Of a stretch of 64,000 nucleotides of DNA, positions 31,149 through 51,515 are shown piece after piece. Both the position numbers and the translations under genes were made by a program. Positions within the stretch are counted from its first letter, which is position 1, and every line of letters begins with the position of its first letter. This stretch comes from Candidatus Sumerlaeaceae bacterium (GTDB lineage: Bacteria > Sumerlaeota > Sumerlaeia > Sumerlaeales > Sumerlaeaceae): NCBI GenBank assembly GCA_049968255.1, contig JBMFRB010000003.1, forward strand, positions 128,898-192,897. Direction: 5' to 3'. Under the pieces are notes generated by a model, which worked only from the letters and a program-made list of their open reading frames with translations, was not told the origin of the DNA and made no database searches.

Positions 31149-31562
31149 CGGGGTTCCGCAAGACGTCATTCGGTCCCCATCACGCTTGTTGTGGGGGAGA
31201 CACGGTCGCGAGAGAGGCTTCGTAATCGTTTGCCTAAGCTCTCACGCCTTCTGCATGGGGGAGATGGTAAGCCCAGCGATGGGGAGCGGAGGAACGCACG
31301 GACAAGCTCTTGTCCTTCGGTGATGAGCACGCATCAACCCTCCTTGACCAGAGCAATGGACATGGGCGTCTTCGTTGCGAGCAGCCGTAGCATAGCTCTC
31401 TCTCCCAAACACCCGAAATTTCCCGAGACCCTAATCTCAACGTTACGCAGAGCTTATTGTCGTTTATAAAAATCGTTCTCATCACGTCCATCAGGGGCCA
31501 TTCTGGCTTGAGTCTTGTCCTCGCTTGCCATTCTGAAAAGATCTGAATATTCGGGAAAGGGT

Positions 31563-34500
31563 ATGACGATGAAGAGTTGGGGCCGTGGACTATTGTGGCT
31601 GACATTGTTTTGGGCGGCCTGCGCCTTTGCATGGGCCAGGTCCCCGGAATACCGCGTCATGTGGGTATCGCGTTTTGAGTGGCCAAGTGCTGACCCAGCC
31701 ACTGCAAAGGCAAATGTGGACAACATCATGCAGACGCTGGCAGCCAATGGCTTCAACGCCGTGCTATTTCAAGTGCGCGGGCAATGCGACGTGCACTATC
31801 CGTCGCCTTACGAGCCGTGGGCCAGCACGTATGGCTGGACGGATCCGGGTTGGGACCCGCTCGCGTACGCGATCCAATCGGCTCATGCGCGTGGTCTCGA
31901 ATTTCATGCTTACATCAACACGCATACCCTGGCGCAGGGCACTCCCCCCGCAAACACAGTCCCCCAACACCCCTACAATCTCCATGGCCCGAATGTCCCG
32001 CTCGAGCAAAGCTGGGTCATCCGTGACCAATCTGGCGCCACCGCAACGAGCGACAACTACACCTGGATCAGTCCCGGTATCCCCGAGGCAAGCTGGTGGG
32101 TGCGCCGTGCCATCATGCATGTGGTGGAAAACTACGATGTGGATGGCGTGCACTTTGACCGCATCCGCACGCCCGGACCACAATACAGTTATGATCCAAT
32201 CACTGTGGCGCGCTTCAATGGCGACGGCAACCCCGACGGCCTGGCTTGGGGCGATTTCATGCGCAGTCAGATCACGCGCGACTTGCGCCACATTTATGGC
32301 GAAATCCAATGGAAGAAGAAAAAGGTCAAAGTCTCGGCCGCGCCCTTCGGCATCGTTTACAAGGACGCAACGACGAACTACCAGGGCACAGGCACACAGA
32401 GCTATTTTCAATGGTACCAAGACAGCTGGGGATGGATGTCAGCGCACGTCGTGGATTTTATGGTGCCACAAATCTATTGGGAGGTGGGCAGCAGCCATCC
32501 CTTCGAGTTGCTTTTAGCCGACTGGCTCAATCATGCTGCAGGGCGCTATGTGGTGGCGGGCAGCACGACGGATGGCGGGACAAAACTCGCCAGCAGCCTG
32601 CTCGCAGAATATCAGCAGACGGTGCAGCAGAACGCAGCTGGGCACTGCATTTTTTCATTTAGCACGATGGGGCCATATTGGACAACTTTCGTGTCGGGGC
32701 CCTACGCCTCGCCCGCCCAGATTCCTGACATGCCGTGGAAAAGTGCCCCGACCACAGGCAACATTGTCGGCTACGTGCGCGACAAAAATGGCTTTCCCGT
32801 CCTGGACGCGAAAGTGAACCGGGTCGGCGATCCTTACAATTATCTTTCAGCCTATGATGGTTTTTTTGCGATCCTTGAAGTGCCGACGTCCGTCCCACTC
32901 ACGCTCACGGCCTCCAAGGCGGGCAAGGGCAAAGCCACAGCTACCGGTATTGTCGTGGCGACCGGAGAAACAACAGTCATTACGCTCACACTCTCGCTCA
33001 GCGAAGGCAGTGTGAAGTTCGATAAGGCGCAGTATCAGTTTGGCGAGCTGGCCCGCATTCGCTTGGACGACGATGATCTTGAAGGAACGGGAACGGTTAG
33101 CGTGAAGGTCTCCAGCCCTTCCGAGCCGACCGGGGAAACGGTGATGCTCGACGAGGGCACCACGCCAGGGCAGTTTTTTGGAAGCATCTTGCTCGTTGGC
33201 GAGGGAGCCACGCAACCGAATGACGGAACGCTGAAAGTCAGCGTGGGCGATGTGGTGACGTGCACATACGAGGATGCCAACCGCGGCGATGGAACGCCGA
33301 CGACGACCACGGCCACGGCCACCATTATTGCGCCGCCAGACATCATCCTGGAGAGTCGCACCCCGAGCGGCGCAGTGACACCCGCACCCTTTTACCAGGA
33401 ATACATCACCACTAGCGGAGCATGGGCCAACACGACGGCCAAGAGTCAGGCGCCTGGACTGCAAGCGCCGGGCAGCCGGTTTACCGCCACGGGCTCGCTG
33501 GGGGCCTACGCGGTCTGGCGACCTCATATCATCACGCCCGGCCTTTACGACGTCTACATCACACTGGCGAACGCAGTGCGGGGGCCAAACAATGATTCGC
33601 CTGGCGCAGGCTTTGTTGTCCAGCATCTCAAAGGAACGACAGCAGGGACATTTGATCTGTCGAAAAACAATCCGGCAATCACAGACAAGTGGATGCTGCT
33701 TGCCAGCGACGTGCCGCTTGGGCCTGGCACGAATGGCAGCCTCACAATTATCAACAATAATCCGAACTCCTCGGCCACACAGCGATTCTGCATGGACGCC
33801 GTAAAGTTTGTCTTCAAAGGATTTGCCGCCACAGGCTCAGGGATGGTGAGTTTCGACAAAGGGAAATACGGTGTGCCAGCTGTGGCAACGGTCCGTTTGA
33901 CCGACGCGAATCTCATGGGCGTCGGCTCAGCGACTGTTTTCCTCACCAGCGGGGCGGAAGTCACCACAGAGGCGCTGGCACTGTCCGAAATCGGTGCTAC
34001 GGGCGTGTTTGAAGGAACTATCGCGTTGGCTCTGGGCATGCCTGTTAGCGGGGACGGGATCCTGCAGGTCAATCCTTTGGATGTGATTGTTGCCACTTAC
34101 AACGATGCTGACAACGGCACCGGCACCCCTGCCGTGGCGACGGCGACCGCACTCGTGGATGGCGTGCCGCCAAGTATTTCCAACATTGAAGTGACAAATA
34201 TCCAGGCCACGCAAGCGACCGTGAACTTTGTCACCGATGAGCCATCCACCGCGGTTGTGCGCTACGGCCAGACCAAGGACGACCTCCACTCTAGCGTGCG
34301 CGCGGACTCTCCGTCGCAAAGCTTTTCGGTTCCACTAAGCGGTCTGTTGAGCGACACAACTTATTATTTCATCGTCGAGGCAGCCGACGAAGTGGGAAAT
34401 CTCGCACGTGCAGATCAGGGCGGGCAGGCGTACTCGTTCCGCACGTCGCCACTGACGTATGGCTTGACCGAGAACTTTGATACTCAGCCTGACCAGTGGA

Positions 34501-37307
34501 GCAAGTCGGGGCTTTGGCGCCTTGTTGGAGCAGACGATGCCTGTCTGTCGCCGGCGTCGCCACCCTATTGCTACCACTATGCAAAGCCTGACACATGCAC
34601 TTATGAAACGGGGGGCATTAATAAAGGAAGTCTCATCTCGCCGGAATTTGTTGTCCCACCGCTGGGTGAACTGACCTTTGCCAGCCGCGAGTGGACGGAG
34701 GGCTCTACTACCCTCTGGGACACAAGGAAAATCTACGTTCTCACGAATAACGGTACAACCCGAAACCTGCTGGCACAACTCACAGGTTCTGGATGGGAAT
34801 GGTACGTTGCCGGCCCATTCAGTTTGGCTGCTTATGCAGATCAGGTGGTCGCGCTGGAGTTCGAGTTCGACACAAAAGACGCCTACCTCAACAGTTTCCC
34901 AGGCTGGGCCGTTGATGACGTCCTGGTGGAGAGCGCGGATAAGCTTGTTGTTTCGAGCGGCTTCTTAGATGCGCGCGGGAACATCGGAGGCCCATTCGAA
35001 CCCGCCGCGGTTGAGTTCGCTCTGTGGAATAAAGGCATGACACCGATTGAGTGGGCAACGAGTCAGACGGTGAGCTGGTTCGACCTGTCTCAAACGAGCG
35101 GCACACTTGCCCCGGACGAGCGCACCACGATCACCGTGGCGCTCAACGACGAAGCCCTTTCCCTACCCGAAGGGCTCCACGTTGGCTCGGTTTCGTTTTA
35201 CAATGTAGCCACGAGCCTCATGAAAGAGCGGAAGATACAGTTGACCGTCGAGAATCCGCCGGCTGCCCCTTCAGATCTGCGCGCGACGAGTGTGACGCAG
35301 ACGGCCATAGCTCTTGAATGGATCGACCAGGCGGACAATGAGACCACTTACGTGCTCCTGCGAGCTCGCGCCGGAGAGGGGCTCTCGCCACGGGCTCTGC
35401 TTCCGGCTAATTCCACCAGCTTTTTCGACAGCGGTCTCGATGCGGACACGAGTTACACTTATGTGGTGAGAGCGGTCAATTCTTGGGGGTATTCGCCGCC
35501 ATCGAACGTGCTCGATGTCCTGACGCTGCCTTGGCCGCCTGCTCAACCAACAAATTTGCACGTCTGCGGTGTGACGCAGACGCAGGTCTGCTTGGCGTGG
35601 AGTGACGAGGCCGAAAATGAGACGGCCTATGAAATCGAACGCGACACGGGTTCCGGATTTGAGCATCTGGCAACTTTGCCGGCAGATAGCGACACATTCA
35701 CCGATCCGTCGCTGGATGCGGAAATGAACGTTCTCTATCGGGTGCGCGCCGTAAATGCAGGTGGCGCATCGCTCTGGTCGAATAGGGTCGAAGTTCGCAC
35801 ACTCCCGTGGGCCCCAGCTATTCCTTTGAACCTCTCGGCCGCTCTCGTCGATGGTCACACTCAGCTCACCTGGATAGACGCGTCGACCAATGAGACGGGT
35901 TTCGAGCTCGAATGGCAGGTGGATGATGGGCCTTTCCTTCCTCTGGCGAATCTGCCCCCGAATACGTCGTCCTATATCCACAGCTTGCCAGCCCCAGGCA
36001 CGCGCAACTCTTATCGCGTGAGAGCGATCAATGCCGGGGGCGCGAGCGACTGGTCGAATACGGCTGAGATGATCACACCCCTCGCCTCGACATTTGTCGA
36101 CGGACCGCAGGGGTGGACGCTCCACGGTATCCCTTCCGAGGTGGTCACGGGCGATTTCGACGCGGAGTGTGGCGCACTCCGCTTGAGAGTGAGCTCATCG
36201 AGCCAGCAGCGTATCCTCGGCTGGCAATCGCCGCGGCTGCCTTTGACGGGCAAACCCGAGACGATTTATCGTTTCAAAGCCTACGTGTTCCGCTCGGGGC
36301 AGGCTAATATGGGCGACCCGAGACAAGTGCCCAATATGCGCCTACGTTGTTCCGTGCGTTATGCGATGAACAGCATGCTCGAAATGTTCTGGCATCTTGC
36401 GCTTGATCCTACGTCTGACGTGGACATGCTGCCGAACATCCCCTCGAGTGATCCGCAAAGGCCGACAGCGTACCGTGTGGATCTCGATCCCGTTGACGTG
36501 CCTGCGCTTGATCCAGTCGCGGCGCCCAACGAAGGTGTGCAGGGAATGTTTGAGGTTTACTCGCTTGAACCACAGGAAAACGGCTCACTGGAGCTGGCCG
36601 AAGCCGCGCTCATGGCACTGCCTGCGCCAGCGAGTGTCAGGCCACTGAAAACTTACGTGACCGGGCCAAACGATGCAGGCGATCTTCACCGCGGCATCTA
36701 TATGCGCTCCACTCTCGGCGGCACAGTTCCCTTGCCGACAATTGACGATTCGACAACCTATGGCCTTATCCTGGATTCTACGGCCTGCTCGCCCGATGAC
36801 GTCGCCGTAGCGGTGGCTGAGATTGATCCGGGAGCTGATTTAGCAACCCGCGTGCGTGTCGAGCCCGGGCGCCAGTATCGCGTGCGCTGGCACGTGGTGA
36901 GTCCCCGCCAAACGAACCTTCAGGCACAATTGCGGTTGCGGTTGCGCACGCTGCGCTTTGCGTGGTCGCAAAAACTTGAACTCGGCGGAGCTTGGGCTGC
37001 TGGCCCCGTCAACAACGCCATTGCTCAGCAGGCACTGCCCGGCGTGGGAACAGGCAATCCAGCCAAGCGGGGGGATGAGCTCCCCGCAGTGCTCGACGGC
37101 GGGTGGTACACGATGTATTTCCACGGGCCTCCTGTGGTGCCACTGAAGCAGCCCGGGCCCGGTGTGCCACGGCCCTCCCGACGCGATGTGAAATGTGGCG
37201 TCGATGTCATCGATACGTTGACCCATGCGTCTGAAGGGCGCAGCGAGGGCGGACTTTTCTTCGTGGACGCGATCGAAGTGGCTGATTTCCCGACCTTGCC
37301 CGATTGA
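31563..37307 (+). CDS. Large secreted GHL10 (DUF187) hydrolase with carboxypeptidase-regulatory-like, golvesin-like and FN3 domains
   Basis: Signal peptide; EYRVMWV, FNAVLFQVRG, DPLAYAIQSAHARGLEFHAY, YDVDGVHFD, DFMVPQIYW; several FN3 repeats (W.D.A.NET...YRVRAVN.GG.S.WSN). Confidence 0.85.
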   Translation: MTMKSWGRGLLWLTLFWAACAFAWARSPEYRVMWVSRFEWPSADPATAKANVDNIMQTLAANGFNAVLFQVRGQCDVHYPSPYEPWASTYGWTDPGWDPLAYAIQSAHARGLEFHAYINTHTLAQGTPPANTVPQHPYNLHGPNVPLEQSWVIRDQSGATATSDNYTWISPGIPEASWWVRRAIMHVVENYDVDGVHFDRIRTPGPQYSYDPITVARFNGDGNPDGLAWGDFMRSQITRDLRHIYGEIQWKKKKVKVSAAPFGIVYKDATTNYQGTGTQSYFQWYQDSWGWMSAHVVDFMVPQIYWEVGSSHPFELLLADWLNHAAGRYVVAGSTTDGGTKLASSLLAEYQQTVQQNAAGHCIFSFSTMGPYWTTFVSGPYASPAQIPDMPWKSAPTTGNIVGYVRDKNGFPVLDAKVNRVGDPYNYLSAYDGFFAILEVPTSVPLTLTASKAGKGKATATGIVVATGETTVITLTLSLSEGSVKFDKAQYQFGELARIRLDDDDLEGTGTVSVKVSSPSEPTGETVMLDEGTTPGQFFGSILLVGEGATQPNDGTLKVSVGDVVTCTYEDANRGDGTPTTTTATATIIAPPDIILESRTPSGAVTPAPFYQEYITTSGAWANTTAKSQAPGLQAPGSRFTATGSLGAYAVWRPHIITPGLYDVYITLANAVRGPNNDSPGAGFVVQHLKGTTAGTFDLSKNNPAITDKWMLLASDVPLGPGTNGSLTIINNNPNSSATQRFCMDAVKFVFKGFAATGSGMVSFDKGKYGVPAVATVRLTDANLMGVGSATVFLTSGAEVTTEALALSEIGATGVFEGTIALALGMPVSGDGILQVNPLDVIVATYNDADNGTGTPAVATATALVDGVPPSISNIEVTNIQATQATVNFVTDEPSTAVVRYGQTKDDLHSSVRADSPSQSFSVPLSGLLSDTTYYFIVEAADEVGNLARADQGGQAYSFRTSPLTYGLTENFDTQPDQWSKSGLWRLVGADDACLSPASPPYCYHYAKPDTCTYETGGINKGSLISPEFVVPPLGELTFASREWTEGSTTLWDTRKIYVLTNNGTTRNLLAQLTGSGWEWYVAGPFSLAAYADQVVALEFEFDTKDAYLNSFPGWAVDDVLVESADKLVVSSGFLDARGNIGGPFEPAAVEFALWNKGMTPIEWATSQTVSWFDLSQTSGTLAPDERTTITVALNDEALSLPEGLHVGSVSFYNVATSLMKERKIQLTVENPPAAPSDLRATSVTQTAIALEWIDQADNETTYVLLRARAGEGLSPRALLPANSTSFFDSGLDADTSYTYVVRAVNSWGYSPPSNVLDVLTLPWPPAQPTNLHVCGVTQTQVCLAWSDEAENETAYEIERDTGSGFEHLATLPADSDTFTDPSLDAEMNVLYRVRAVNAGGASLWSNRVEVRTLPWAPAIPLNLSAALVDGHTQLTWIDASTNETGFELEWQVDDGPFLPLANLPPNTSSYIHSLPAPGTRNSYRVRAINAGGASDWSNTAEMITPLASTFVDGPQGWTLHGIPSEVVTGDFDAECGALRLRVSSSSQQRILGWQSPRLPLTGKPETIYRFKAYVFRSGQANMGDPRQVPNMRLRCSVRYAMNSMLEMFWHLALDPTSDVDMLPNIPSSDPQRPTAYRVDLDPVDVPALDPVAAPNEGVQGMFEVYSLEPQENGSLELAEAALMALPAPASVRPLKTYVTGPNDAGDLHRGIYMRSTLGGTVPLPTIDDSTTYGLILDSTACSPDDVAVAVAEIDPGADLATRVRVEPGRQYRVRWHVVSPRQTNLQAQLRLRLRTLRFAWSQKLELGGAWAAGPVNNAIAQQALPGVGTGNPAKRGDELPAVLDGGWYTMYFHGPPVVPLKQPGPGVPRPSRRDVKCGVDVIDTLTHASEGRSEGGLFFVDAIEVADFPTLPD

Positions 37308-40139: not shown

Positions 40140-41414
40140 CTAGCGCTTTTCCTCACCGCTTTTTCTAAGTTTTTCAATGAGTTGCGACGGGACGGGGAGC
40201 GTGCTGCCGGAAACTTTCTCGCTGCCGGTCACCGCGGCGGGACTGGTGCGCGAGGGAATTTCGCGCCGATTGAAAATACCGCCCGAGGCAAAAAGTTGAA
40301 GCGCGAGAATGAGAAGAACGCCTGCTGCAAACGAGCCGAGAGTGAGGTACATCAGCCCACGCGTACGCCGCCGGATCGTCTCTACAGCGTCACGGATATA
40401 GGTGGCGATTTTCATGCGCATTTGCGTTTCGAGCTCCCGTGCCACAATGGCTTCCACGAAATTTGGCAACTGCTTGTCTATGGCATTAGCCACTTCTCGC
40501 TCGACAATTTCCCCCGTGATATCTTTCGCGAGTTTGGGAACGACCTTTTGTGCCGCAGAGTCTATCACCCCAATCACGCGCTGCGACGCTTCGGGCACAA
40601 GGTTCTCGACTTCCTTTTGCACGCGGCGTTGGACTTCGCGCGGAAGCACCTGCTCCAAAGCTTCACGCAGACGCTCGCGGGCGATTCCCGGAAGAATGCT
40701 GTCGGCCGCACGTCGCACAGCGCGTTCGGTTTCGTCGCGGAGCACCACGTCCACTGCTTCGGCCACTTTGCGCTCCGCAAGTTTTTCCACCATGCTGCGT
40801 GCCACCTCGTGGACGGTCATCTTCACGAGTTCTTCTTGCTTCTCCGCTGTGAGCTGTGTGACGCGCTCGTCCACCTCGCGACGGGCACGCTGGTCTACCT
40901 GCGAAACGACAAGCTGAAGCACGCGTTCGATGATGATCTGGGTGCGCTGCTCGACGGCTTGCTGGATGTGCACTTCGGCCAGTCGCTTGATGGTGGCCTC
41001 TGCTGCCTCGCGTAGGAATTGGCGACTCTTCTCAAGGATTTGCTTTTCTTCGAGCATGAGCTCGACTTTTTTCAGCAGCAGTTCCGGCTCGAAAGGTTTC
41101 TTTATCCACCCGTTAGCGCCCATAAGGGTGGGGCTTTCGTCGCCACGCAACTCTTCTTCGGGGATCATCAGCAGGACCGGCTTGAAATGGAACTCCTCGT
41201 CGCTTTTGAGCATCCGCGTGGTTTCGAGGCCGGTCATCTCGCGCAGTTTCGCATCCACAATAATGAGGGCCACGCTTTCCAGGTCCGGAAAGGTCAGTGC
41301 GGCAACCCCATTGGAGGCCACGCTCACGCGGTAGCCATTTGGTTCGAGAATTGCGCGAACCAATTCCTGGACCGCCACGTTGTTGTCCACGATGAGAATG
41401 TTTTCACCGGCCAT
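40140..41414 (-). CDS. Receiver-domain protein with long coiled-coil repeats and C-terminal TM helix
   Basis: ILIVDNN...LIIVD...GANGWIKKPF receiver; E/R/V-rich helical region; TM LMYLTLGSFAAGVLLILALQLF. Confidence 0.85.
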   Translation of the reverse strand: MAGENILIVDNNVAVQELVRAILEPNGYRVSVASNGVAALTFPDLESVALIIVDAKLREMTGLETTRMLKSDEEFHFKPVLLMIPEEELRGDESPTLMGANGWIKKPFEPELLLKKVELMLEEKQILEKSRQFLREAAEATIKRLAEVHIQQAVEQRTQIIIERVLQLVVSQVDQRARREVDERVTQLTAEKQEELVKMTVHEVARSMVEKLAERKVAEAVDVVLRDETERAVRRAADSILPGIARERLREALEQVLPREVQRRVQKEVENLVPEASQRVIGVIDSAAQKVVPKLAKDITGEIVEREVANAIDKQLPNFVEAIVARELETQMRMKIATYIRDAVETIRRRTRGLMYLTLGSFAAGVLLILALQLFASGGIFNRREIPSRTSPAAVTGSEKVSGSTLPVPSQLIEKLRKSGEEKR

Positions 41415-41428
41415 AGCGTGCACCCTGC

Positions 41429-42778
41429 CTAGCCATAGATTTTCTCCGCGTATTCTTGGAAGTAAAACTCACCGCTGTCGCGGATGGTCGAGCGCTGTCG
41501 GAAATCCTTAAAAAATTCCGAGAAGAACTTGCGCGCCGCTCGTGTGCCCATGCGTTCGGCTGCTGTGACAAACAGCAGTTTGAGTAGGCGTGCCAAGGCT
41601 TCGAGTGTGTCGTTGAGAATGATCTCGAAAGGACCTTTTGTTCCGACCACCCGGGCGAAACGGGTGAATTGACTCGCGTCGATTTTGTTGCCGCTGGCTT
41701 GCAAGAGGTCCGCTTTAGGAAACGCCATAACGACGTTGCGCCACAATCGCTCGACGAGTTTGTCGTCGCGCTGGCCGCGATAGAATTCGTGTTGCTCGCA
41801 CAGAGCAGTCACAAGCTGATTCGTGAGCTCGGCGACGAATTCTACCGGCGTAGGAAATTCTAAGATCGTGGCAGGCTCACGAGGCTGAGGTGGAGCTTCT
41901 CCGCGCTCCTCGGCAGCTTTGCGCCGCACGAACATCGCTAAGATGCGCGCCGACGTCGAGCCAGTGGATTCGGGATGGTCCAGATCCGGGTCTTCCTGTG
42001 GCACGATGGCGTCGATGTCCAGCGGAGCATAGGCATCCGCAATGACGTCCTGATCGTCGGGCAGGCGGATTGTGATGTAGCCCGAGGCCAGAAACGAATT
42101 GAGAATGCGATATGCCTCGAATTTGCTAATGCCACTACGCGCTGCGATCGCGCCAACATTGGCCACCCCATTGATTAGCGAAAGCACTTTCCACTCACTG
42201 TCGCTGAGCTGCATCTCTTCGCGCGCATCTTCGACAGCTAAGGGACGCAACACTGGGATGGCGTGGTCCCCGGGGATATTGCGCACGATGCGCACCCATT
42301 CGTCGAGGCGCCGCGTGCCTTCAATAATCAAGGGTTCGACGTCGAGCTCGACGAGTACCTCGCCCACGGAGTCCTCGTCGCCGTAATCAAATTTGAATGA
42401 GCCTTCTTGTAAAGAAAAGAGGTCCCACATCTCCTCCTCGAGTTGCAGGCGAATTGCCTGACGTAGCTGATCACGCGTGAGCAGACCTCGCTCGATGAGG
42501 ATATGACCCAGTGGTGGTTTTTCAGGGTGCGACCGCTGATAGCGCAGAGCCTCTTCTACTGCTTGACGCGGAACGAGCCCCTGAGTGACAAGCATTTGCC
42601 CCAGCTTGCGCGGCCGGCCCAAACTCGATGAATTCACAAGCTTGCCCCGACGCAGATACAAACGGACCGTGTAATTTCCGTGTTGTACGGTCAATGTGCC
42701 TGTGAGTTTGCCCATGCTCAAAAACTGCAGGATTTCGGGCAAGCTCAGCGTCGGATTAAGTTTTCCTTCGAGTTCCAT
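41429..42778 (-). CDS. DUF4388 (PatA-N-like) protein with inserted MshEN-like motif
   Basis: LEGKL...LPEILQFLSMGKLTGTL, tandem KLGQML..GL/PLGHIL..GL motifs, EGSFKF, LIIEGTRRLDEW, winged-helix LSDSEWKVLSLING. Confidence 0.85.
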   Translation of the reverse strand: MELEGKLNPTLSLPEILQFLSMGKLTGTLTVQHGNYTVRLYLRRGKLVNSSSLGRPRKLGQMLVTQGLVPRQAVEEALRYQRSHPEKPPLGHILIERGLLTRDQLRQAIRLQLEEEMWDLFSLQEGSFKFDYGDEDSVGEVLVELDVEPLIIEGTRRLDEWVRIVRNIPGDHAIPVLRPLAVEDAREEMQLSDSEWKVLSLINGVANVGAIAARSGISKFEAYRILNSFLASGYITIRLPDDQDVIADAYAPLDIDAIVPQEDPDLDHPESTGSTSARILAMFVRRKAAEERGEAPPQPREPATILEFPTPVEFVAELTNQLVTALCEQHEFYRGQRDDKLVERLWRNVVMAFPKADLLQASGNKIDASQFTRFARVVGTKGPFEIILNDTLEALARLLKLLFVTAAERMGTRAARKFFSEFFKDFRQRSTIRDSGEFYFQEYAEKIYG

Positions 42779-42980
42779 CCTGATTAGGCAGCGTCTCTGT
42801 CATGAACTCGCACTCTAGTCTATGCCCAAATGCGCGACTTTGTTGAATTCATGCAATGAAAAAGCATTGCCACCAGGCGCACTGCTGGTAACTTGGGATA
42901 ACGAAGTGTGGATGAAAGACACGAAAAAAGCTATACTTAGAGTTTGTTGCTAAACAGGGGCACGGACTAAGTCGGCTGGC

Positions 42981-45900
42981 ATGGGAGAACTAAGGCATAT
43001 TATCGGAATAGATCTTGGCACCACGAATTCCGTGGTCGCAGTCATGGAAAACGACCAGCCCGTCGTGCTAGCGACAAGTGAAGGAACGACGCGCTTACCT
43101 TCCGTGGTGGCATTTTCGGACGACCCCAATGCGCCGCCGATTGTGGGAGAGTTGGCAAAGCGACAAGTAGTCATGTACCCCGAGCGCACAATTATCAGCG
43201 TGAAGCGCCTTATGGGGCGCTCGCTGGCCGATATCGCAGATTGGCGCGACGAATTGCCCTACGAGGTGATCGAACAGGACGGACGCCTGCTCATTCGCGT
43301 GGGCGAAGCAGGCTATACCCCTAGTCAGATTTCTGCGTTTATTCTCCAAAAATTGAAGAAGACGGCCGAAGATTATTTGGGTGAGCCCGTGGAACAGGCC
43401 GTCATCACCGTGCCGGCTTACTTTGATGACTTGCAGCGGCAAGCGACCTATGAAGCGGCCGAGCTCGCCGGCCTGCAAGTCCTGCGCTTGCTCAATGAAC
43501 CCACGGCCGCTGCCATCGCCTATGGCTTGGGCCGCAATCGGGAAGAACGCGTTGCTGTGTATGACTTTGGTGGCGGCACGTTCGACCTGACCATTCTCGA
43601 CATCGCTGGCCAGACATTTGAGGTGCTTACATCTTTGGGCGATACGCGGCTCGGGGGCGACGACATTGATTTTCTCTTGGTGGAGCGCCTGGTTGCGGAA
43701 CTGCGTAAGAAAATCGGCGAACACTATATGCCCGATGCCTTGGCAATGCAGCGCTTGCGCGAAGCTGCAGAGAAAGCAAAGTGCGAGCTTTCCTATGCGC
43801 GGCAAGCCACGGTCAGCCTGCCTTTTCTTGCCTATCACGGTGGCGACCCCGTTCACCTGGAAGTGACCATTCGGCGCGCGGAGCTGGAGCAAATGATTCA
43901 GCCCCTGGTGGAGCGAACTATGAAATGCTGCGAGCGCGCGCTTGAATCATGTCGGCTGCGCCTTGGTGATATTGATCGTGTCATTCTCGTCGGTGGGACC
44001 ACTCGCATTCCCTATGTGCAGCAGGCGGTGGAAGAGTTTTTTTGTTGCGCGCCCTACAAGGGAATCAACCCAGACGAGATCGTTGCCATGGGCGCTGCTA
44101 TGCAGGGCGCAATCATGCAGGGCCAACTCAAGGAAGTTGTGCTGCTCGACGTCACCCCGCACTCGCTTGGCGTAGAAATCGAAGGAGGGCGCGTTTCGCG
44201 CGTGGTCGAGCGAAACTCCACCATCCCCATCAAGGCGGCCAAGCTCTTCACGACGACAGAGGATAATCAAGAAGTTGTCGTGGTGCACGTCGTTCAGGGC
44301 GAGGGAGAAAAGATTAATGAATGCCGCTCGTTGGGGAAGTTTGTTCTGACGGGCATTCAAAAAGCCAAGGCGGGCGTGCCACGCATCCAGGTCACATTCC
44401 ATATCAATGCGGACGGTATGGTGGAAATTTCTGCCCAGGATCTGGCCACCAAAGAGGAAGCCGGGATCACCTTGGCCGTGGCGCCAGGCATGGAGCAGGA
44501 CGAAGGCTCGCGCCGCCGCCGAGCACGTCGCCGGCCGCAAGCTGCGGAGTCGACAAAGAAAGAAGTTGTGGCTGGACAGGCTACTGTCACACAAGAGCAC
44601 CAGCCTCAAATCACTGTCCAGCGTCAGGCTGCACCGGGCTTCGCACCGCTGCGCTTGCAGGAGACCAGGTCGTCGCTGACACCCCAGACGCTCTCAACCG
44701 TTGCCCAACCTGAGCCGAAAAATCCCCTTAGCACTGTGCCGGTTGGAGATGACATGCAGACGGCCGTACAGGCTTTTGAGCTTCCTGCCCCCGCTTCCCT
44801 CCCATGTTCGCCGTCCACGCGCGAGTTACTAGAAAAGTTGCGCACGGTTGACCTTGGCCAGGTCGGCGGATCACCGGAAACACTCGCAGCGGCGTGCAAA
44901 GAGCTTGGGGCGGTTGCGCGCGCGATGCCTGAGAAACCGGCAGTCTGGCCGTGGTGGATTTATCTGCTTATTCTGCAAGGCGAGATCGAAGAAGCGCGCC
45001 GACGTCTTCTGGAGTGGGCTGCAAGCAACGCTCCAGACCGGAACCTGCTCCCCTTGTGCGCCGATTTCCTTGAGCTGCGGGCGGGAGTAGATCCTTATAC
45101 GGTAGCAGCACGGGCACTGTCAGCGACTGCCGCAGGCGACAACCACGCTGCGTGGGATCTGCTCGTGCCCTGGATGAAAACGGAAGATCTGCCGCGCGAA
45201 GTCTGCGAGATCTTTGTGCAAGTGGCAAAAAAGCGTCTCGACGAAAAAGCAGATGTGCTGGCGAAGCTTCTCTTGGCCAATGCTTTGGTCCATCTCGGCA
45301 GGTTCGATGAAGCACTCGCGATCTTGGAACAAATTGTTGGTCTGCCCGAAGTTCAAGTGTCCGCAACAAAGTTGATGGGTATCTGCTGCTGGAAGAAAGG
45401 AATGAATTATCTCGCATGGCAGAAGCTGGCGATGCTTCCGCCTACTGACGATGTGAGAGAGCTTCTCTACCGGCTGGCCGACGACTCCGAGAAGGTGGGA
45501 CAACGCGAGTTGGCGCGGGATATTTTTTCTTATCTCGCTAATTTGTCGGGATCTTATCGCGACGCCTGCACACGCTGTTCCGCATTGGCCAAACATGGAC
45601 AAACGTCCCCTGTTCCCGCCACACCAGCGCCGGGCTCCGACCTTGAGCAGATCGTGGCGGCTTTTGCGGATTCACGCTTCGTCATTCTCAGCGAAATTAA
45701 CCGGGGCTCGATGGGCGTCATTTATCGCGCGCGCGACCAAGTGCTCGATGAGATTGTGGCACTGAAAGTGCTCAACGATTATCTGGCCACTGATCCCACG
45801 GCGCTCGAGCGCTTCAAACGAGAAGCGCGCGCGGCCAAGCGCCTTTCGCATCCAAATATCGTGCGCATCCACGACATGTACGAGATCGGCCCCAAGCGCC

Positions 45901-46463
45901 TGCTTTCCATGGAGTACATCGCAGGCCGCGACCTAAAAACCATTCTGCGCGAGGGTAGGCCTTTGCCCTGCGAAGAGATTGTGCGTGTCGGCCGATGCGT
46001 GTGTGACGCTTTGGCCTACGCCCACCGTATGGGAATTGTGCATCGCGACATCAAACCCGCCAACATTATGATTGCCGAGAATGGTACGGTCAAGGTCACC
46101 GACTTCGGCATAGCGAAATTTACGCTCCAGCAGGCCGATATCACTCGCTCTGGGTCGCACATTCTAGGGACGCCGCTTTACATGGCTCCCGAACAAATCA
46201 AAGGGGGCGAAGTGGATGGGCGTGCGGATCTCTATGCGCTTGGCGTGACGCTTTATGAGATGGCATCTGGTCATCCCCCATTCTTCGAAGGAAACATTGA
46301 ATATCATCATCTTCACACGCCGCCTCCTCCACTGCGTGTGCCTCTGCCACTTGGTCTTGCGGAAGCTATCCTCAGGTGTTTGGCAAAGGATCCGGAGCAG
46401 CGCTTCCAAAGCGCAGAAGAACTTGCTGAAGCACTCGCGGCAGTGGACTGCGCGGGACTCTAA
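42981..46463 (+). CDS. Hsp70/DnaK-like domain fused to TPR-like region and Ser/Thr protein kinase
   Basis: GIDLGTTNS, TVPAYF, NEPTAAA, DFGGGTFD, VGGTTRIP, VLLDVTP linker; kinase VALK, HRDIKPAN, DFG, GTPLYMAPE; single uninterrupted 1160-aa ORF. Confidence 0.93.
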   Translation: MGELRHIIGIDLGTTNSVVAVMENDQPVVLATSEGTTRLPSVVAFSDDPNAPPIVGELAKRQVVMYPERTIISVKRLMGRSLADIADWRDELPYEVIEQDGRLLIRVGEAGYTPSQISAFILQKLKKTAEDYLGEPVEQAVITVPAYFDDLQRQATYEAAELAGLQVLRLLNEPTAAAIAYGLGRNREERVAVYDFGGGTFDLTILDIAGQTFEVLTSLGDTRLGGDDIDFLLVERLVAELRKKIGEHYMPDALAMQRLREAAEKAKCELSYARQATVSLPFLAYHGGDPVHLEVTIRRAELEQMIQPLVERTMKCCERALESCRLRLGDIDRVILVGGTTRIPYVQQAVEEFFCCAPYKGINPDEIVAMGAAMQGAIMQGQLKEVVLLDVTPHSLGVEIEGGRVSRVVERNSTIPIKAAKLFTTTEDNQEVVVVHVVQGEGEKINECRSLGKFVLTGIQKAKAGVPRIQVTFHINADGMVEISAQDLATKEEAGITLAVAPGMEQDEGSRRRRARRRPQAAESTKKEVVAGQATVTQEHQPQITVQRQAAPGFAPLRLQETRSSLTPQTLSTVAQPEPKNPLSTVPVGDDMQTAVQAFELPAPASLPCSPSTRELLEKLRTVDLGQVGGSPETLAAACKELGAVARAMPEKPAVWPWWIYLLILQGEIEEARRRLLEWAASNAPDRNLLPLCADFLELRAGVDPYTVAARALSATAAGDNHAAWDLLVPWMKTEDLPREVCEIFVQVAKKRLDEKADVLAKLLLANALVHLGRFDEALAILEQIVGLPEVQVSATKLMGICCWKKGMNYLAWQKLAMLPPTDDVRELLYRLADDSEKVGQRELARDIFSYLANLSGSYRDACTRCSALAKHGQTSPVPATPAPGSDLEQIVAAFADSRFVILSEINRGSMGVIYRARDQVLDEIVALKVLNDYLATDPTALERFKREARAAKRLSHPNIVRIHDMYEIGPKRLLSMEYIAGRDLKTILREGRPLPCEEIVRVGRCVCDALAYAHRMGIVHRDIKPANIMIAENGTVKVTDFGIAKFTLQQADITRSGSHILGTPLYMAPEQIKGGEVDGRADLYALGVTLYEMASGHPPFFEGNIEYHHLHTPPPPLRVPLPLGLAEAILRCLAKDPEQRFQSAEELAEALAAVDCAGL

Positions 46464-47010
46464 CGGCGCGCAAGCGAGCGGACGCACATGATCGCTCATT
46501 GTCGAGTTCCCTTGGTGGCGTCATCGGGTCGTCGCGTGGTCAATCCGACCGACGCGAAAGGTGATCAGCACAGCGCGGACTGGAAAGCGTGACCTCGCAC
46601 GCCGCAATGCTCTCCCTGGCTGCGCGCGCACAGGAGAAAGACGCGCTTGCTTGCTGGGAATCTTTGCGACCATTTCTTTGCCGTGCGGGCGCAAGAGAAA
46701 GGCCTACAAAAACACGCCCAAACTCCGGCATGACCAGCTCGCCGTGCGCGCGTAAAAAAACGTTTCTCGGATGATTACCTCGTGAGAAAGCTAGCTCGCG
46801 CCGCCAAGTGCAAAGTAACGCGGGACCGCGAAATGCGTTTGGGCCTTCTGCCAGCGCTGCTTATTCCACTACGCTAAAGAGAAGCATGGCGGCAACCTCA
46901 CTTGCCCCCAGCTGCTGCTCTTCTTGCCTGAAATCGATGGTAGAGATCCCAGGGAGCGTAATCTTGAAATACTCTTGCTTTGTTCGGGCGGAGGCCGAGG
47001 CGACCGCTAA

Positions 47011-47688
47011 TCATGTCTCGATGGGAGCAATGCACTCTGGGACATCATGACGCGGATTATTGACAAGGGGGGAAACCTTGTAAGCCACAAGCAGCTCGGG
47101 CGGGGGAGCAATGAGAAGCGAGCGCACCACGCCTACGTCGTCGAGATGCCGGTCGAGCCACGGCGCGTAGTGATCGCGCGTGAGAATGGCCGGCATGCGG
47201 TCATGAAAGCGGCGCACGGGTTCCACTGCAGGAATAGTGAGGATCGCGCATGTTTCAAGTTGTTCGCCATGAGGCCCGTTCCACACCTCCCACACGCCGG
47301 CAAAGCCAAAAAGCTGCCCGCGGCGGGGTCTGAAAAAGAACGGCTGCTTCACTGCGCCTGTCTTGGCCCATTCGTAGAAACCAGAAGCTGGCACGATGCA
47401 GCGTCGACGGCGAAATGCGTGGCGAAATGCAGGTTTTTCCGCGGCCGTTTCAGCGCGCACGTTGATCATCTTGCTGCCAAAGGAAGGATCAGAAGCCCAC
47501 GACGGGACAAGTCCCCAGGCGAAGTGCGTAATCTCGCGCGCATCGTCTGGCCGCTCTCGCACGGCCAGAACTGGCTGCGACGGAGCGATGTTATAGCGAG
47601 GCGCAAGAGCGCCCACGGCTTCCGCCGGCACCCCGAACTCTTGTGCAATCTGCTGTGCATTGGCAACAAGCGCAAAACGTCCGCACAT
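47011..47688 (-). CDS. SRAP (YedK/HMCES) abasic-site protection protein
   Basis: N-terminal MCGRF, RYNIAPSQ, WGLVPSW, GFYEW, HDRMP. Confidence 0.96.
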   Translation of the reverse strand: MCGRFALVANAQQIAQEFGVPAEAVGALAPRYNIAPSQPVLAVRERPDDAREITHFAWGLVPSWASDPSFGSKMINVRAETAAEKPAFRHAFRRRRCIVPASGFYEWAKTGAVKQPFFFRPRRGQLFGFAGVWEVWNGPHGEQLETCAILTIPAVEPVRRFHDRMPAILTRDHYAPWLDRHLDDVGVVRSLLIAPPPELLVAYKVSPLVNNPRHDVPECIAPIET

Positions 47689-48049: not shown

Positions 48050-50629
48050 GTGAACCAAGCACAAAGCTGCGGCGACCTGTGCCAGCTTCACGATGAGGTG
48101 AGCGCTCGTGAGTTGTGCCCCAAAAGCCACGAAGAAAAACTAGCGGCGGTCGAAATGATGCACAGGGAAAAAATGATGAGGTCTCCACTCTTTATCCGGG
48201 CGCGACGGCCTTACGGTTTCCGCGGCGTCTGCGCCAACCCGACAGCAGCTGCGGACAGAGCGCGAAGGTTGATCGCTAGACCTCTTTGCATTTCGTCGCC
48301 GCGTCAAGCCAGTCGCCGAAGGCAAGTTTTTGCTAGTTTTGGCTTTCCTGCATGCTTTTCTCGTCTGCGGTTTCGGGGATGGCTCCTCGTGGTAGCTGTG
48401 CTTGGCGTGTTATTCTCTGTCGGAACCTGCGCGGCTGCTGAGAAGGTGCGGATTCGATACCTGAGTTGGGAGACATCCTTCGAGCAGATCGCGATGGTCA
48501 AGAAGCTCATCGCGGAGTTCGAGCGACGCAATCCGGATATCAAAATCTCGCTCGAATCCAGTGCCGATGCCACGCGCATCTTTCTCACCGATGCGGCTGC
48601 GGGGACGCCTCCCGACGTCATGTACATTACGACCGAGTTCATTGCGCCGCTCGTCGAAAAGCGCATTCTAGAACCGCTCGACCCTTACATCGAGCGTGAC
48701 CATATCGATATGGGCATGTTCATCCCCTCTACAATTGAGGGTCTGAAGGTCGGCGGTGGCCTCTATGCGTATCCGATTCACTTCTCCGTGGATTTGCTGT
48801 TCTACAACAAGCGGCTATTTGATGAACGGGGCGTGTCTTATCCGGATGAAACCTGGACCTGGCAAACGTATCGCGACGCTGCAACCTCGCTGACGATTGA
48901 CCGCAACCGCGACGGGCAGCCTGAAGTTTTTGGCTGTATGCAGGTGGACTGGCAGCTGATCGTGAAAAGTTTCGGTGGGCGTATCTTTGATCCGAAGCGC
49001 TATCGCTTTGTCAACGATTCGCGCGAGGCGCTTCAAGCCTTCGCTTTCAATTCTTCGCTGCAAGGCAAACAGGCGCCAAGTGCGGCTCAGGCGATGGACA
49101 CAACGGATATGCAGCTTTTCTCCAACGGCCGCGTGGCGATGTTCGTCGGCCGCACGTGGCAGCTTCCTCAGATCATCAAGACCATGCGCGATCCGTGGGA
49201 TATTGCCCACGTACCGAAAGGCAAGCAGCGCACCTGCATTTTGAACGTCGGTGGCAACTGCATCGCTGCTGGTTCGCCGCACAAGGAGGCGGCCTGGAAG
49301 TTTGTCAAGTTCTACTCATCGCCCGAGGGCCAGCGGCTGCTAGGAGTGCAAAAGAACTGTACGCCAGCTGTGCGCGAGCTAGCCACGAGCCCCGATTTCT
49401 TTCTCAGTCCGCCGCCACCAAGCCTGCGCGTGGCGGTGGACGCAGCTGATTACGCAAGCGGACGCCTGTATCCTGATGACGCCTGGGCGCCTGAATTCTA
49501 TGCGCGTGTGTGGCAAACTACAGTAGATCAATTCCGCATGACGTCGCCCATCACGCCCGAAGCAGCCCTGGCACGCATCGTGCGTGCGGGCAATGCACTC
49601 ATCGAAAGCCATGAACGCGAAAAGGCCGAGTGCGGCCCTGTGCAGCCGGGCGCCGACACAACGAGCTTCCTCATTCGCCTCATGCTCACGCTCATGGCCA
49701 TCGGGGCTATGGCGCTGCTCGGGTTGGCCCGCACGAACCGCCGCTACTGGGAGGGCTACGCGTTCGTGGCGCCGTGGCTGGTGGGCTTTGTCCTCTTCAC
49801 CCTCGGACCTGTGCTGGCATCGCTCTATCTCAGTTTCTGTCGCTACGATTTGCTGACGCCGCCAAAGTGGGTCGGGCTGCGTAACATCGTCGAGCTAGTC
49901 ACCGACCCGGTCTTCTGGATTTCGCTCAAGAACACACTTTACTACTCGGCACTGGTTGTGCCGGGCACACTAGTCATGTCGCTGGGGCTTGCCATGCTTC
50001 TCAACACGGGGGTGCGCGGCACGACGTTTTTCCGCGCCGTGTACTACTTGCCCGCACTCACAGCCGGCGTTGCCACGAGTTTGCTCTGGCGCTGGATTTT
50101 CAACCCGCAGCTTGGGCTTTTTAACATGTTTCTCAATTGGGTCGGGCTGCCGGGGCCAGAGTGGCTGACCTCGCCGCGATGGGCCATGCCAGCGATCATT
50201 ATCATGAGTATCTGGGGCGGTGTGGCCGGGCCCATGCTTATTTACCTGGCCGGTTTGCAGGGCATTCCCCAGCATCTGTATGAGGCGGCTGCGATCGACG
50301 GAGCGTCGCGCTGGCAGATGTTCCGCCATGTTACGTTGCCCATGCTCAGCCCCACGATCTTTTTCAATCTCATCATGGCGATCATCGGCTCGTTCCAGGT
50401 GTTTACGACGGTTTTTGTGATGACAGCAAACACGGCGGCCTCACAGGAGCCCGGCGGGCCGGCAAACTCCACCATGGTCTACGTGCTTTACCTCTATCAG
50501 ACAGGGTTTCGCTACTTGGCGATGGGGAAAGCGTGTGCTATGGCGTGGATTCTGTTTCTTATCATCCTGGGGCTGACGCTGTGGAACTATCGCATGTCGC
50601 AACGGTGGGTGCATTATGACCAAGCCTGA
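48050..50629 (+). CDS. Carbohydrate ABC transporter: solute-binding domain fused to permease
   Basis: SBP motifs (PDVMY, LFYNKRLFD, FSNGRVAM, KEAAWKFVKF) then permease with EAA loop YEAAAIDGASRW; real start probably about 100 codons downstream. Confidence 0.9.
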   Translation: MNQAQSCGDLCQLHDEVSARELCPKSHEEKLAAVEMMHREKMMRSPLFIRARRPYGFRGVCANPTAAADRARRLIARPLCISSPRQASRRRQVFASFGFPACFSRLRFRGWLLVVAVLGVLFSVGTCAAAEKVRIRYLSWETSFEQIAMVKKLIAEFERRNPDIKISLESSADATRIFLTDAAAGTPPDVMYITTEFIAPLVEKRILEPLDPYIERDHIDMGMFIPSTIEGLKVGGGLYAYPIHFSVDLLFYNKRLFDERGVSYPDETWTWQTYRDAATSLTIDRNRDGQPEVFGCMQVDWQLIVKSFGGRIFDPKRYRFVNDSREALQAFAFNSSLQGKQAPSAAQAMDTTDMQLFSNGRVAMFVGRTWQLPQIIKTMRDPWDIAHVPKGKQRTCILNVGGNCIAAGSPHKEAAWKFVKFYSSPEGQRLLGVQKNCTPAVRELATSPDFFLSPPPPSLRVAVDAADYASGRLYPDDAWAPEFYARVWQTTVDQFRMTSPITPEAALARIVRAGNALIESHEREKAECGPVQPGADTTSFLIRLMLTLMAIGAMALLGLARTNRRYWEGYAFVAPWLVGFVLFTLGPVLASLYLSFCRYDLLTPPKWVGLRNIVELVTDPVFWISLKNTLYYSALVVPGTLVMSLGLAMLLNTGVRGTTFFRAVYYLPALTAGVATSLLWRWIFNPQLGLFNMFLNWVGLPGPEWLTSPRWAMPAIIIMSIWGGVAGPMLIYLAGLQGIPQHLYEAAAIDGASRWQMFRHVTLPMLSPTIFFNLIMAIIGSFQVFTTVFVMTANTAASQEPGGPANSTMVYVLYLYQTGFRYLAMGKACAMAWILFLIILGLTLWNYRMSQRWVHYDQA

Positions 50630-51515
50630 TGATTCGATGAATCTACGAACGAGTGCCGGGAAGCGGCCGCGCGTGTCGTGGGGTCGACGCGTACGCCGTG
50701 CGTTGTGGCTCGTCGTCATCTATACGCTTCTCATCATTGGCGGTGCCATTTTCGCGCTTCCTTTCCTTTGGATGGTGCGCACCGCGCTCATGGACTACGC
50801 CCAGGTGCTCCGTGTCCCCATCGAGTGGATTCCCCAACCGGTGCGCTGGGGAAATTTCCGCGAAGCGCTTGGCTTCATGGATTTCCCTATTCTGCTGCGC
50901 AACACGCTCGTGATCACGCTACTGGTGATCATTGGCCAATTGCTGTCGTGCTCACTCGTGGCCTTTGGGTTCGCACGCCTTGAATTCCCGGGGCGCGAGT
51001 TTCTGTTCTTCGTGCTGCTCAGCACGATGATGTTGCCTGCAATGGTCACCGAAATTCCGCGCTTTATTCTTTTCCGGCATTTCGGTTGGATCGACTCCAT
51101 TCTCCCGCTTGTCGTCCCCGCCTATTTTGGAGCGCCGTTCTTCATCTTTCTTCTGCGCCAGTTTTTCAAAACCATACCCAAGGATCTCGATGACGCAGCA
51201 CGCATCGACGGGTGCTCGGCGTGGCGCATCTGGTGGCAAATTATGCTCCCCCTCTCGAAGCCCGTGCTTGCGGTTGTTGTGATCTTTGGATTCATTTGGA
51301 CGTGGAATGATTTTTGGGGACCCCTGATTTACCTTCGCACCGCCGACAAGAAGACGTTGTCCCTCGGGCTGCAAGTGTTTCAGGGCATTTATCAAACTTA
51401 CTATCACTACCTCATGGCGGCATCGCTTGTTGTGCTGAGTCCTGTGCTCGCGCTCTATGTCTTCTGCCAGCGTTATTTCACACAAGGCATCGTCATGACG
51501 GGCATGAAAAGCTGA
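50616..51515 (+). CDS. Carbohydrate ABC transporter permease (MalG-like)
   Basis: PFLWM, FLLRQFFKTIPKDLDDAARIDG, WNDFWGPLIYL, QRYFTQGI. Confidence 0.95.
   Translation: MTKPDDSMNLRTSAGKRPRVSWGRRVRRALWLVVIYTLLIIGGAIFALPFLWMVRTALMDYAQVLRVPIEWIPQPVRWGNFREALGFMDFPILLRNTLVITLLVIIGQLLSCSLVAFGFARLEFPGREFLFFVLLSTMMLPAMVTEIPRFILFRHFGWIDSILPLVVPAYFGAPFFIFLLRQFFKTIPKDLDDAARIDGCSAWRIWWQIMLPLSKPVLAVVVIFGFIWTWNDFWGPLIYLRTADKKTLSLGLQVFQGIYQTYYHYLMAASLVVLSPVLALYVFCQRYFTQGIVMTGMKS

Follow-up and report, generated by a model that had tools for sequence, protein, structure and literature searches.

A lidless Hsp70 joined through a TPR superhelix to a Hanks-type Ser/Thr kinase in the Sumerlaeota

Hsp70 proteins are usually viewed as folding machines, and the Hanks-type kinases of bacteria as membrane receptors. 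Chaperone-titration sensors are known in the form of BiP with IRE1 and PERK, Hsp70 with HRI, and DnaK with sigma-32, and the way in which chaperone occupancy is turned into a signal in the eukaryotic unfolded-protein response is still debated. The gene described here lies at 42981..46463 on the + strand of a window of 64,000 nucleotides (nt) from Candidatus Sumerlaeaceae bacterium, by which is meant the whole stretch of DNA that was analysed (assembly GCA_049968255.1, contig JBMFRB010000003.1:128,898-192,897, forward strand). It encodes an Hsp70 without its helical lid, a disordered linker, a superhelix of tetratricopeptide repeats (TPRs) and a Ser/Thr protein kinase in a single chain of 1160 amino acids (aa). 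Judged from its conserved residues, this is a working-looking Hsp70 engine wired to a working-looking kinase, and most of the Sumerlaeota have retained the fusion.

The pairing of TPRs with a kinase has been noted for several bacterial kinase families (bioRxiv 10.1101/2025.01.12.632604), and the words Hsp70, DnaK and chaperone occur 0 times in the accessible part of that preprint. The accessible part of a further source (PMC11032199) likewise holds 0 occurrences of Hsp70 and DnaK, and mentions chaperones once in an unrelated context. Hsp70 components of conflict systems have been described, with no Hsp70-kinase fusion in the portion of that text that could be consulted (PMC7159879). Full-text literature searches returned no paper on an Hsp70-kinase fusion; supplements lay outside the scope of these searches and could list such architectures.

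Domain architecture of the fusion protein

The open reading frame (ORF) begins with an ATG and runs through 1160 codons with 0 internal stops, at an even GC content of 0.57-0.59. Only 9 open codons precede the ATG (1169 aa in all), and the start is therefore well constrained. Pfam assigns HSP70 to residues 7-535 (profile 1-533 of 599, E 6.6e-181) and Pkinase to residues 902-1145 (E 3.2e-51), with a borderline match to TPR_19 at residues 757-785 (25.0 bits for a cut-off of 25). The DnaK models of NCBIfam cover only positions 3-527 of their 625, and its PknB-type kinase models are restricted to the kinase domain. An AlphaFold2 model of the full-length protein, built on an alignment of 77 family sequences, has a mean pLDDT of 85.6 and a pTM of 0.51.

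A first-pass annotation, made from the letters of the DNA and its translated frames, had proposed this architecture, and its anatomy proved right throughout. The ATPase domain, interdomain linker and β-substrate-binding domain (SBDβ) that it named all fall within the HSP70 match, and no stop separates the domains. Its motifs are each found in the translation, with EVVLLDVTP at residues 385-393, the variant glycine loop INRGSMG at 906-912, VALK at 926-929, HRDIKPAN at 1021-1028, DFG at 1041-1043 and APE at 1069-1071. The chain also lacks a membrane segment as predicted, the highest mean Kyte-Doolittle hydropathy over 19 residues being 1.22, whereas the membrane helix of a paralogue described below reaches 2.15. 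The features of the gene, all on the + strand, are as follows.

42981..46463, + strand: whole gene, lidless Hsp70–disordered linker–TPR–Ser/Thr kinase, 1160 aa, stop codon 46461-46463
42981..44132, + strand: Hsp70 nucleotide-binding domain (NBD), residues 1-384, with the equivalents of DnaK D8, T11, K70, E171, D194, T199 and D201
44133..44159, + strand: interdomain linker EVVLLDVTP, residues 385-393, corresponding to DnaK 389-VLLLDVTP-396
44160..44477, + strand: SBDβ, residues 394-499, floor residues F423, V433, V/I435, I/V398 and I/V469 kept, arch changed
44478..44786, + strand: disordered linker rich in Ala, Pro, Arg and Ser that replaces the helical lid, residues 500-602, pLDDT 28-37 except at 561-570
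44511..44534, + strand: polybasic patch RRRRARRR, residues 511-518, just after SBDβ, in 76/77 members
44562..44576, + strand: motif EVVAG, residues 528-532, pattern [DE][VI][VIL][TAPS][GAP] in 28/77
44640..44651, + strand: motif FAPL, residues 554-557, pattern F-x-x-[LVI] followed by an acidic residue or Gln in 40/77
44673..44693, + strand: motif SLTPQTL, residues 565-571, pattern [ASGE][LM]-x-P-x-x-[LI] in 17/77
44787..45602, + strand: TPR superhelix, residues 603-874, 14-15 helices, the last ~120 residues best conserved and common to a receptor-kinase paralogue
45603..45665, + strand: flexible TPR/kinase junction, residues 875-895, pLDDT <50 at 875-885
45666..46445, + strand: Hanks-type Ser/Thr kinase, residues 896-1155, with K929, E948, HRD 1021-1023, N1028, DFG 1041-1043, T1055 and APE 1069-1071

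Residues of the Hsp70 part were related to those of E. coli DnaK by alignment to 2kho (query 6-518 with DnaK 3-521, E 7e-150) and their conservation was counted over 77 family members; the roles of the DnaK residues in catalysis, switching and coupling, J-domain contact and formation of the arch are presumed to carry over by position. In DnaK numbering, 74-77 of the 77 members keep D8, T11, K70, E171, D194, T199 and D201, while P143, R151 and, among the residues in contact with the J-domain, R167 and N170 are found in all 77 and T173 in 76. The sequence VVLLD of the interdomain linker occupies residues 386-390 of the fusion, in which DnaK L391 (L388 here) is present in 77/77 and DnaK D393 (D390 here) in 74/77; D481 is kept in 74/77, and K414 is Lys or Arg in 77/77. 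The floor of the peptide pocket is kept as well (F426 and V436 in 77/77; Ile or Val at positions 401, 438 and 472). The arch is altered: M404 and A429, which we take to form DnaK's arch over the bound peptide, are replaced by Lys, Glu, Ala, Thr or Arg and by Thr (75/77), respectively, and V407 is Arg or Lys in 72/77. With neither a lid nor a hydrophobic arch, the exchange of peptides would be expected to be fast.

AlphaFold2 models the NBD and SBDβ with confidence (residues 1-499). The modelled Hsp70 part resembles a docked, ATP-type Hsp70, with a target-normalised TM-score of 0.86 and rmsd of 4.1 to 7kzu and rmsd values of 4.2 to 4b9q and 2.8 to ATP-bound BiP (6asy), and fits the undocked ADP state of 2kho poorly (rmsd 16). 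The NCBIfam model NF001413 (DnaK) is matched above its cut-off (668.4 bits vs 648) and TIGR02350 below it (653.1 vs 822.55); the protein belongs to the Hsp70 family and is not the organism's DnaK. As the catalytic and coupling residues are conserved over the 77 members, the Hsp70 part looks both enzymatically active and allosterically coupled, and the kinase likewise looks active.

Where a lid would follow, the Hsp70 profiles end (at 533 of 599 for Pfam and 527 of 625 for the DnaK models) and no helix is modelled at residues 500-602, in keeping with the lid loss first proposed. The linker found there varies from 79 to 266 aa across the family, with a median of 134, contains 10% Ser and 6.8% Thr, and is poorly conserved overall. 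One block, at residues 561-570, reaches a pLDDT of 72, and the segment of raised confidence extends to ~574 and includes SLTPQTL. The polybasic patch occurs in 76/77 members (shuffled mean 3.5), and the EVVAG-, FAPL- and SLTPQTL-type motifs occur in 28, 40 and 17 of the 77 where shuffled sequences give means of 1.7, 6.4 and 1.7, although these controls overstate significance because the members are related. Since the patch and the three motifs lie far above shuffled expectation, the linker, as judged from its sequence, is not a mere spacer. A complex prediction with SBDβ (residues 385-500), the TPR-kinase part (601-1160) and the linker (505-600) scored 0.00 twice, with no controls folded, an outcome that weighs neither for nor against contact of the linker with SBDβ or the TPRs.

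The organism's own canonical DnaK (G000:C1:405676-407454) ends in ...PEVVEGEIVDENK, which is similar to the linker motif EVVAG at 44562-44576, and the Pfam and NCBIfam Hsp70 alignments of the fusion extend ~35 residues beyond its last β-strand. These observations hint that the linker may be a degenerate remnant of an ancestral DnaK lid and tail.

The ~270 aa of TPR-like helices expected between linker and kinase are real. In the full-length model, 14 helices span residues 611-874 (pLDDT 94-97) and are followed by the kinase at 887-1155; folded alone with an alignment of 24 sequences, the domain reaches a pLDDT of 91.4 and a pTM of 0.84 and shows 15 helices. Foldseek returns TPR arrays as its best matches, led by the consensus TPR 8chy (E 2.6e-5) and continuing through OGT, PEX5 and the TPR subunits of APC/C down to 1e-3, and TPR families appear in the precomputed Pfam annotation of many homologues. 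The helical domain is thus a TPR superhelix. With VIA-align, its last three repeats (model residues ~159-285) match three-repeat TPR domains at Z 10.5-12.5, a range in which a type III secretion chaperone, Cns1, FKBP52, Hop TPR1, Sgt2 and YbgF are tied and which is common for helical repeats, so that no closer TPR family can be named. The matches to Cns1, FKBP52, Hop TPR1 and Sgt2 (Z 10.5-12.0) are tied with those to unrelated TPR domains and give no assignment as an EEVD clamp; the organism's own DnaK ends in ...EIVDENK rather than EEVD.

Within the kinase, K929, E948, HRD 1021-1023, K1025, N1028, D1041, G1043, T1064, P1070, E1071, D1083 and R1141 are invariant (77/77) and the activation-loop Thr, T1055, is kept in 72/77. 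The glycine loop reads N-R-G-S-M-G, an Asn (N907) replacing its first Gly in 77/77. By these residues the kinase looks active and of the RD type. A near-invariant, family-specific stretch after the APE motif, PPF-x-EGNIEYHHLH-x-PPPP (residues 1099-1120, 46275-46340), carries 3-4 His residues and is partly common to the receptor paralogue; it could serve as a docking or metal site.

Distribution, paralogues and recurrence of the fusion

A search of 5.8 billion proteins, considered here for its best 120 matches, found PF00012 together with PF00069 in every one of them, in proteins of 1141-1317 aa. Where named, these come from the Sumerlaeota (BRC1) as "molecular chaperone DnaK" or "Hsp70 family protein", the former a label that hides the kinase and misnames the gene. 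Of 75 Sumerlaeota genomes, 46 have a single open frame, 1155-1368 aa long, that is matched both by the whole protein as query and by its TPR-kinase part; ~10 others carry the two halves apart, at the ends of contigs or on different short ones, and in one genome (G063) a TGA comes between them. The Hsp70 part is the best conserved, with 85% identity to its nearest homologue, and comparison to a relative of the same genus gives 50% identity for the TPR domain and 65% for the TPR-kinase part.

An artefact of assembly or annotation, in which two genes were joined by misassembly or a missed stop, is next to impossible, as the same frame is present in those 46 genomes and the same architecture in all of the best 120 matches, including on contigs of 0.86-3.3 Mb. 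Its recurrence on many independent contigs rules out a chimeric join, and on this comparative evidence the fusion gene is real and under selection. Public reads yielded a single run (X1, Logan contigs, from a hot springs metagenome) with 0.14 of the sampled words, in which 4 of 8 short pieces are >=99% alike to the fusion and none of the 8 bridges a domain junction.

Queries with the TPR-kinase part also found a second class of proteins, of ~1600-1830 aa, in most Sumerlaeota genomes. The member encoded in the same genome (G000:C1, locus L037:1329-6170) is a protein of 1613 aa bearing FG-GAP repeats, one membrane helix (~505-527), a very long TPR array and a kinase, and is 43% identical to residues 702-1152 of the fusion over 459 aa (E 4e-93). 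The last TPRs and the kinase thus form an output cassette common to both proteins. At the position occupied by Hsp70 in the fusion, the paralogue has an extracytoplasmic sensor domain, and this equivalence is the main argument for reading the Hsp70 part as an input module.

Fusions of the same two domains are found in other lineages. Atlas clusters with HSP70 and Pkinase include proteins of 792-883 aa from Planctomycetota and of 822 aa from Actinomycetota. A search of 1.84 billion representatives gave 43 multi-stretch matches outside the Sumerlaeota-type family, of which a Pfam scan found both domains in 23, with Hsp70 preceding the kinase in 12 and following it in 11; the remaining 20 are mostly tandem Hsp70s, with one Hsp70-TIR protein (P0207), one Hsp70-TPR protein and two multi-kinase proteins. 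In 18 of these 23 fusions the best HSP70 stretch does not run beyond position 535 of the 599 in the profile, and they are lidless in this sense. GrpE domains are built into three (P0171, P0232, P0259) in three different arrangements, and TPRs into two (P0193, P0233).

A tree of the Hsp70 domain was inferred under LG+G4 (IQ-TREE, quick mode) from 79 chosen rows, made up of 33 plain Hsp70s, 20 fusions of the Sumerlaeota type, 23 other fusions and 3 sequences of the organism's own genome. All 20 Sumerlaeota-type fusions fall into a single clade (SH-aLRT 100), whose sister is P0127, a fusion of 1127 aa that retains more of the lid; the two together group with the organism's 639-aa Hsp70 paralogue and not with its DnaK (95). 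The remaining fusions are interspersed with plain Hsp70s, and well-supported branches force at least 5 and at least 7 label changes for the two domain orders, figures that in an unrooted tree set a rough lower bound on the number of origins. It is clear from the tree that the Hsp70-kinase fusion arose repeatedly. Repeated fusion, the frequent loss of the lid and the built-in GrpE domains argue for a functional tie between the kinase and the nucleotide cycle of the Hsp70.

Functional readings and gene neighbourhood

The explanation that we favour, tentatively and with a confidence somewhat short of even, is that the fusion is a soluble cytoplasmic signalling protein in which Hsp70 serves as the ATP-driven input module of a TPR-anchored Hanks-type kinase, converting chaperone load or the presence of a client into a phospho-signal. 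The Hsp70 part would cycle between two states, docked with ATP and undocked with ADP, and would capture exposed hydrophobic segments, either of unfolded proteins or of one specific client, with the short motifs of its own linker possibly acting as a competing pseudo-substrate. Binding would be fast on and fast off, as the lid and hydrophobic arch are missing. Occupancy and nucleotide state could then alter the freedom or self-association of the TPR-kinase part, which would set trans-autophosphorylation of the activation loop (the T1055 region) and, through it, the phosphorylation of downstream targets. The logic would be that of BiP for IRE1 and PERK or of DnaK for sigma-32, held within one polypeptide.

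A bolder form of this proposal, which we consider unlikely but worth stating, casts the protein as a repeatedly evolved, one-chain chaperone-gated kinase, a cis counterpart of BiP-IRE1/PERK: the ATP cycle and peptide pocket of the lidless Hsp70 would sense proteostasis or clients in the cytoplasm, the linker motifs, perhaps melted relics of lid and tail, would be a tethered pseudo-substrate that unfolded proteins displace, freeing the TPR-kinase part to activate itself, and the gene would encode the core stress-sensing kinase of the Sumerlaeota with convergent equivalents in Planctomycetota, Actinomycetota and others.

The first-pass annotation had offered two functional alternatives, namely an Hsp70 that senses unfolded or specific clients and controls kinase output, or a kinase that regulates its own chaperone cycle. 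Either goes beyond what sequence analysis can prove. The sensor alternative is plausible and has gained indirect support from the input position in the paralogue, from the conserved ATPase, coupling, J-contact and pocket-floor residues, and from the recurrence of fusions, some of them with GrpE.

Several observations weigh against the favoured explanation. Which part controls which, what the linker motifs do and what the clients and substrates are is all inferred, and the pTM of 0.51 means that the placement of Hsp70 relative to the TPR-kinase part is not fixed by the model. K155 of DnaK, which we take to be part of interdomain signalling, is not conserved (R21, I15, Y12, M9, K7), and the linker motifs are conserved only within subgroups. 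One whole family (f16) has only plain Hsp70s and other kinases in 7/7 genomes, including a single-contig genome of 6.0 Mb that is 96% complete, and the fusion is therefore not indispensable; two further genomes (G014, G064) likewise carry only plain Hsp70s and other kinases. No gene for a J-protein or GrpE adjoins the fusion, unlike two other Hsp70 paralogues of the genome, no neighbour is conserved phylum-wide among 21 loci, and Pfam scans of the flanking genes at 19 loci found unrelated housekeeping functions (loci L034 and L035 were left out of the neighbour scan).

The sequence data are alike for an Hsp70 that gates the kinase, an Hsp70 that recruits its substrates and a kinase that regulates the Hsp70, and nothing in them tells the three apart. 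In the second of these, SBDβ, perhaps together with the TPRs, would capture particular proteins, or chains that are unfolded or nascent, and present them to the kinase, so that Hsp70 would define what is phosphorylated and not when. The kept pocket floor beneath an arch remodelled family-wide (Thr at A429 in 75/77, Arg or Lys at V407 in 72/77) fits an altered and perhaps narrower set of clients, a flexible tether of 79-266 aa separates the binding site from the TPR-kinase part, and TPR domains are peptide-binding scaffolds; against this, the extracytoplasmic domain that the paralogue joins to the same cassette cannot deliver cytoplasmic substrates. We regard such recruitment as fairly improbable when taken as the whole account, and it is compatible with an input role for Hsp70 rather than exclusive of it. 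In the third, the protein would be a self-regulated, specialised chaperone, with the kinase as regulator and Hsp70 as output, and autophosphorylation of the linker or of Hsp70 would tune a chaperone or remodelling activity. The linker is rich in Ser and Thr (10% and 6.8%), Hsp70 is the best-conserved part of the chain, and Hsp70s are documented to be phosphorylated in eukaryotes, and also by a kinase from Legionella, in the part of the source available (PMC13215673). Yet an Hsp70 with no lid or arch and no adjoining J-protein or GrpE gene is poorly equipped for holding clients stably, the domain order parallels that of the sensor-kinase paralogue, and the recurrence of both fusion orders would be left unexplained, which together make self-regulation distinctly improbable.

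An NTPase-kinase of phage defence or another conflict system is a very remote prospect. The PADLOC models PD-T4-6, mad6 and PglW do match the kinase domain, and Hsp70 components are known in conflict systems, as far as the available text of PMC7159879 extends, but the PADLOC matches span only ~821-1155, with none on the Hsp70 part, and the NCBIfam scores lie far below their cut-offs (MAD6 160 vs 460; PglW 94.5 vs 990). Only one of the four Hsp70 genes of the genome is fused, the family forms one clade, and its flanks are of a housekeeping kind with no conserved partner genes. Identity with a known defence kinase (PD-T4-6, MADS mad6 or BREX PglW) was considered for the kinase and rejected on matches confined to the kinase domain, scores under the cut-offs and the lack of partners.

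Should Hsp70 gate the kinase, the fusion would offer a minimal, soluble, single-protein model of how chaperone occupancy becomes a signal, and biosensors for unfolded proteins could take it as a natural template. Were control to run in reverse, it would be a bacterial Hsp70 with a resident regulatory kinase, undescribed in the literature searched.

The source genome (3.12 Mb, 95.75% complete) holds four Hsp70 genes, including the fusion and a canonical DnaK of 643 aa (contig C1, 930 bits). The 639-aa paralogue has a gene for a 251-aa J-protein directly upstream, and the 587-aa paralogue lies in a J-GrpE-Hsp70 cluster whose J-protein has 433 aa; the loci of these two are G000:C2:245672-248199 and G000:C1:275911-279467. 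Upstream of the fusion and divergent from it is a gene whose product, a DUF4388 protein of the PATAN type, weakly matches a helix-turn-helix (41429-42778, - strand), and past it one for a 427-aa response regulator (40140-41423, - strand) whose C-terminal half has no assignment; the pair adjoins the fusion in 4 of the 21 loci, all from the taxonomic family of the window itself. The next ORF downstream, of 80 aa (46808-47050), has no Pfam match, and a gene for an SRAP peptidase also lies downstream, on the minus strand. Promoter-like sites in 42600-47200 number 4 for 1.3 expected, with nothing distinctive about them, and terminator-like sites are at chance level. The fusion gene appears to stand alone.

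Other genes of the window and of the related loci may be recorded here. In two related genomes (G059, G065), a gene for a KaiC-like double ATPase lies directly upstream of the fusion (L019:6178-7836 and L022:11666-13444). At 48050-50629 (+ strand), a protein of 859 aa combines a domain for extracellular solute binding (SBP_bac_1) with one of an ABC permease (BPD_transp_1) in one chain, and its gene precedes another for a permease (50616-51515); loci L017 and L027 have this SBP_bac_1–BPD_transp_1 fusion too. A protein of 1930 aa encoded at 31515-37307 (+ strand) matches a GHL10 domain, which is glycosyl-hydrolase-like, three fn3 domains, Golvesin_C, CarboxypepD_reg and a BACON-like domain, and on these matches is probably a large secreted glycan-active protein.

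Comparison with described systems

Measured against E. coli DnaK (2kho, 4b9q), the fusion keeps the NBD, the interdomain linker, SBDβ and the residues for catalysis, coupling and J-domain contact, whereas it lacks the lid and the polar arch differs from that of DnaK, and a further 660 aa of linker, TPRs and kinase follow. The nearest known lidless forms are lid-truncated Hsp70s, namely the DnaK of Mycoplasma genitalium without SBDα (5obu) and a lid-truncated BiP (7a4u).

On the kinase side, the full RD-type catalytic core with an activation-loop Thr is shared with Hanks kinases of the PknB type. Unlike the PASTA kinases PknB and Stk1, the fusion has neither PASTA domains nor a membrane helix, and the corresponding model NF033483 is matched by the kinase domain only, at 301.6 for a cut-off of 450. 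The pairing of TPRs with a kinase is shared with PknG of M. tuberculosis, where the order is rubredoxin, kinase and a C-terminal TPR domain; in the fusion the TPRs precede the kinase, and Pfam gave no match to PknG_TPR or rubredoxin in the fusion at E up to 0.1. The FG-GAP/TPR/kinase paralogue has in common with the fusion the last TPRs, the junction and the kinase, together with the unusual PPF-x-EG-[ND]-I-x-Y-x-H after the APE motif; it differs in its extracytoplasmic FG-GAP input, where the fusion has a cytoplasmic Hsp70, in its membrane helix and in its much longer TPR array. The Hsp70-kinase fusions of other lineages present the same domain pair, mostly lidless (18/23) and in both orders, but are of separate origin and of 721-1205 aa, and most have no TPR superhelix between the two enzymes.

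The proposed logic is closest, by analogy, to that of the chaperone-titration sensors, for in BiP-IRE1/PERK, Hsp70-HRI and DnaK-sigma-32, as would be the case here, how active a signalling protein is depends on how far unfolded clients occupy an Hsp70. Those systems employ a lidded Hsp70 and an effector as separate proteins, whereas the Sumerlaeota protein unites a lidless Hsp70 and a kinase, with no homology to the sensor domains of IRE1 or PERK, in one chain.

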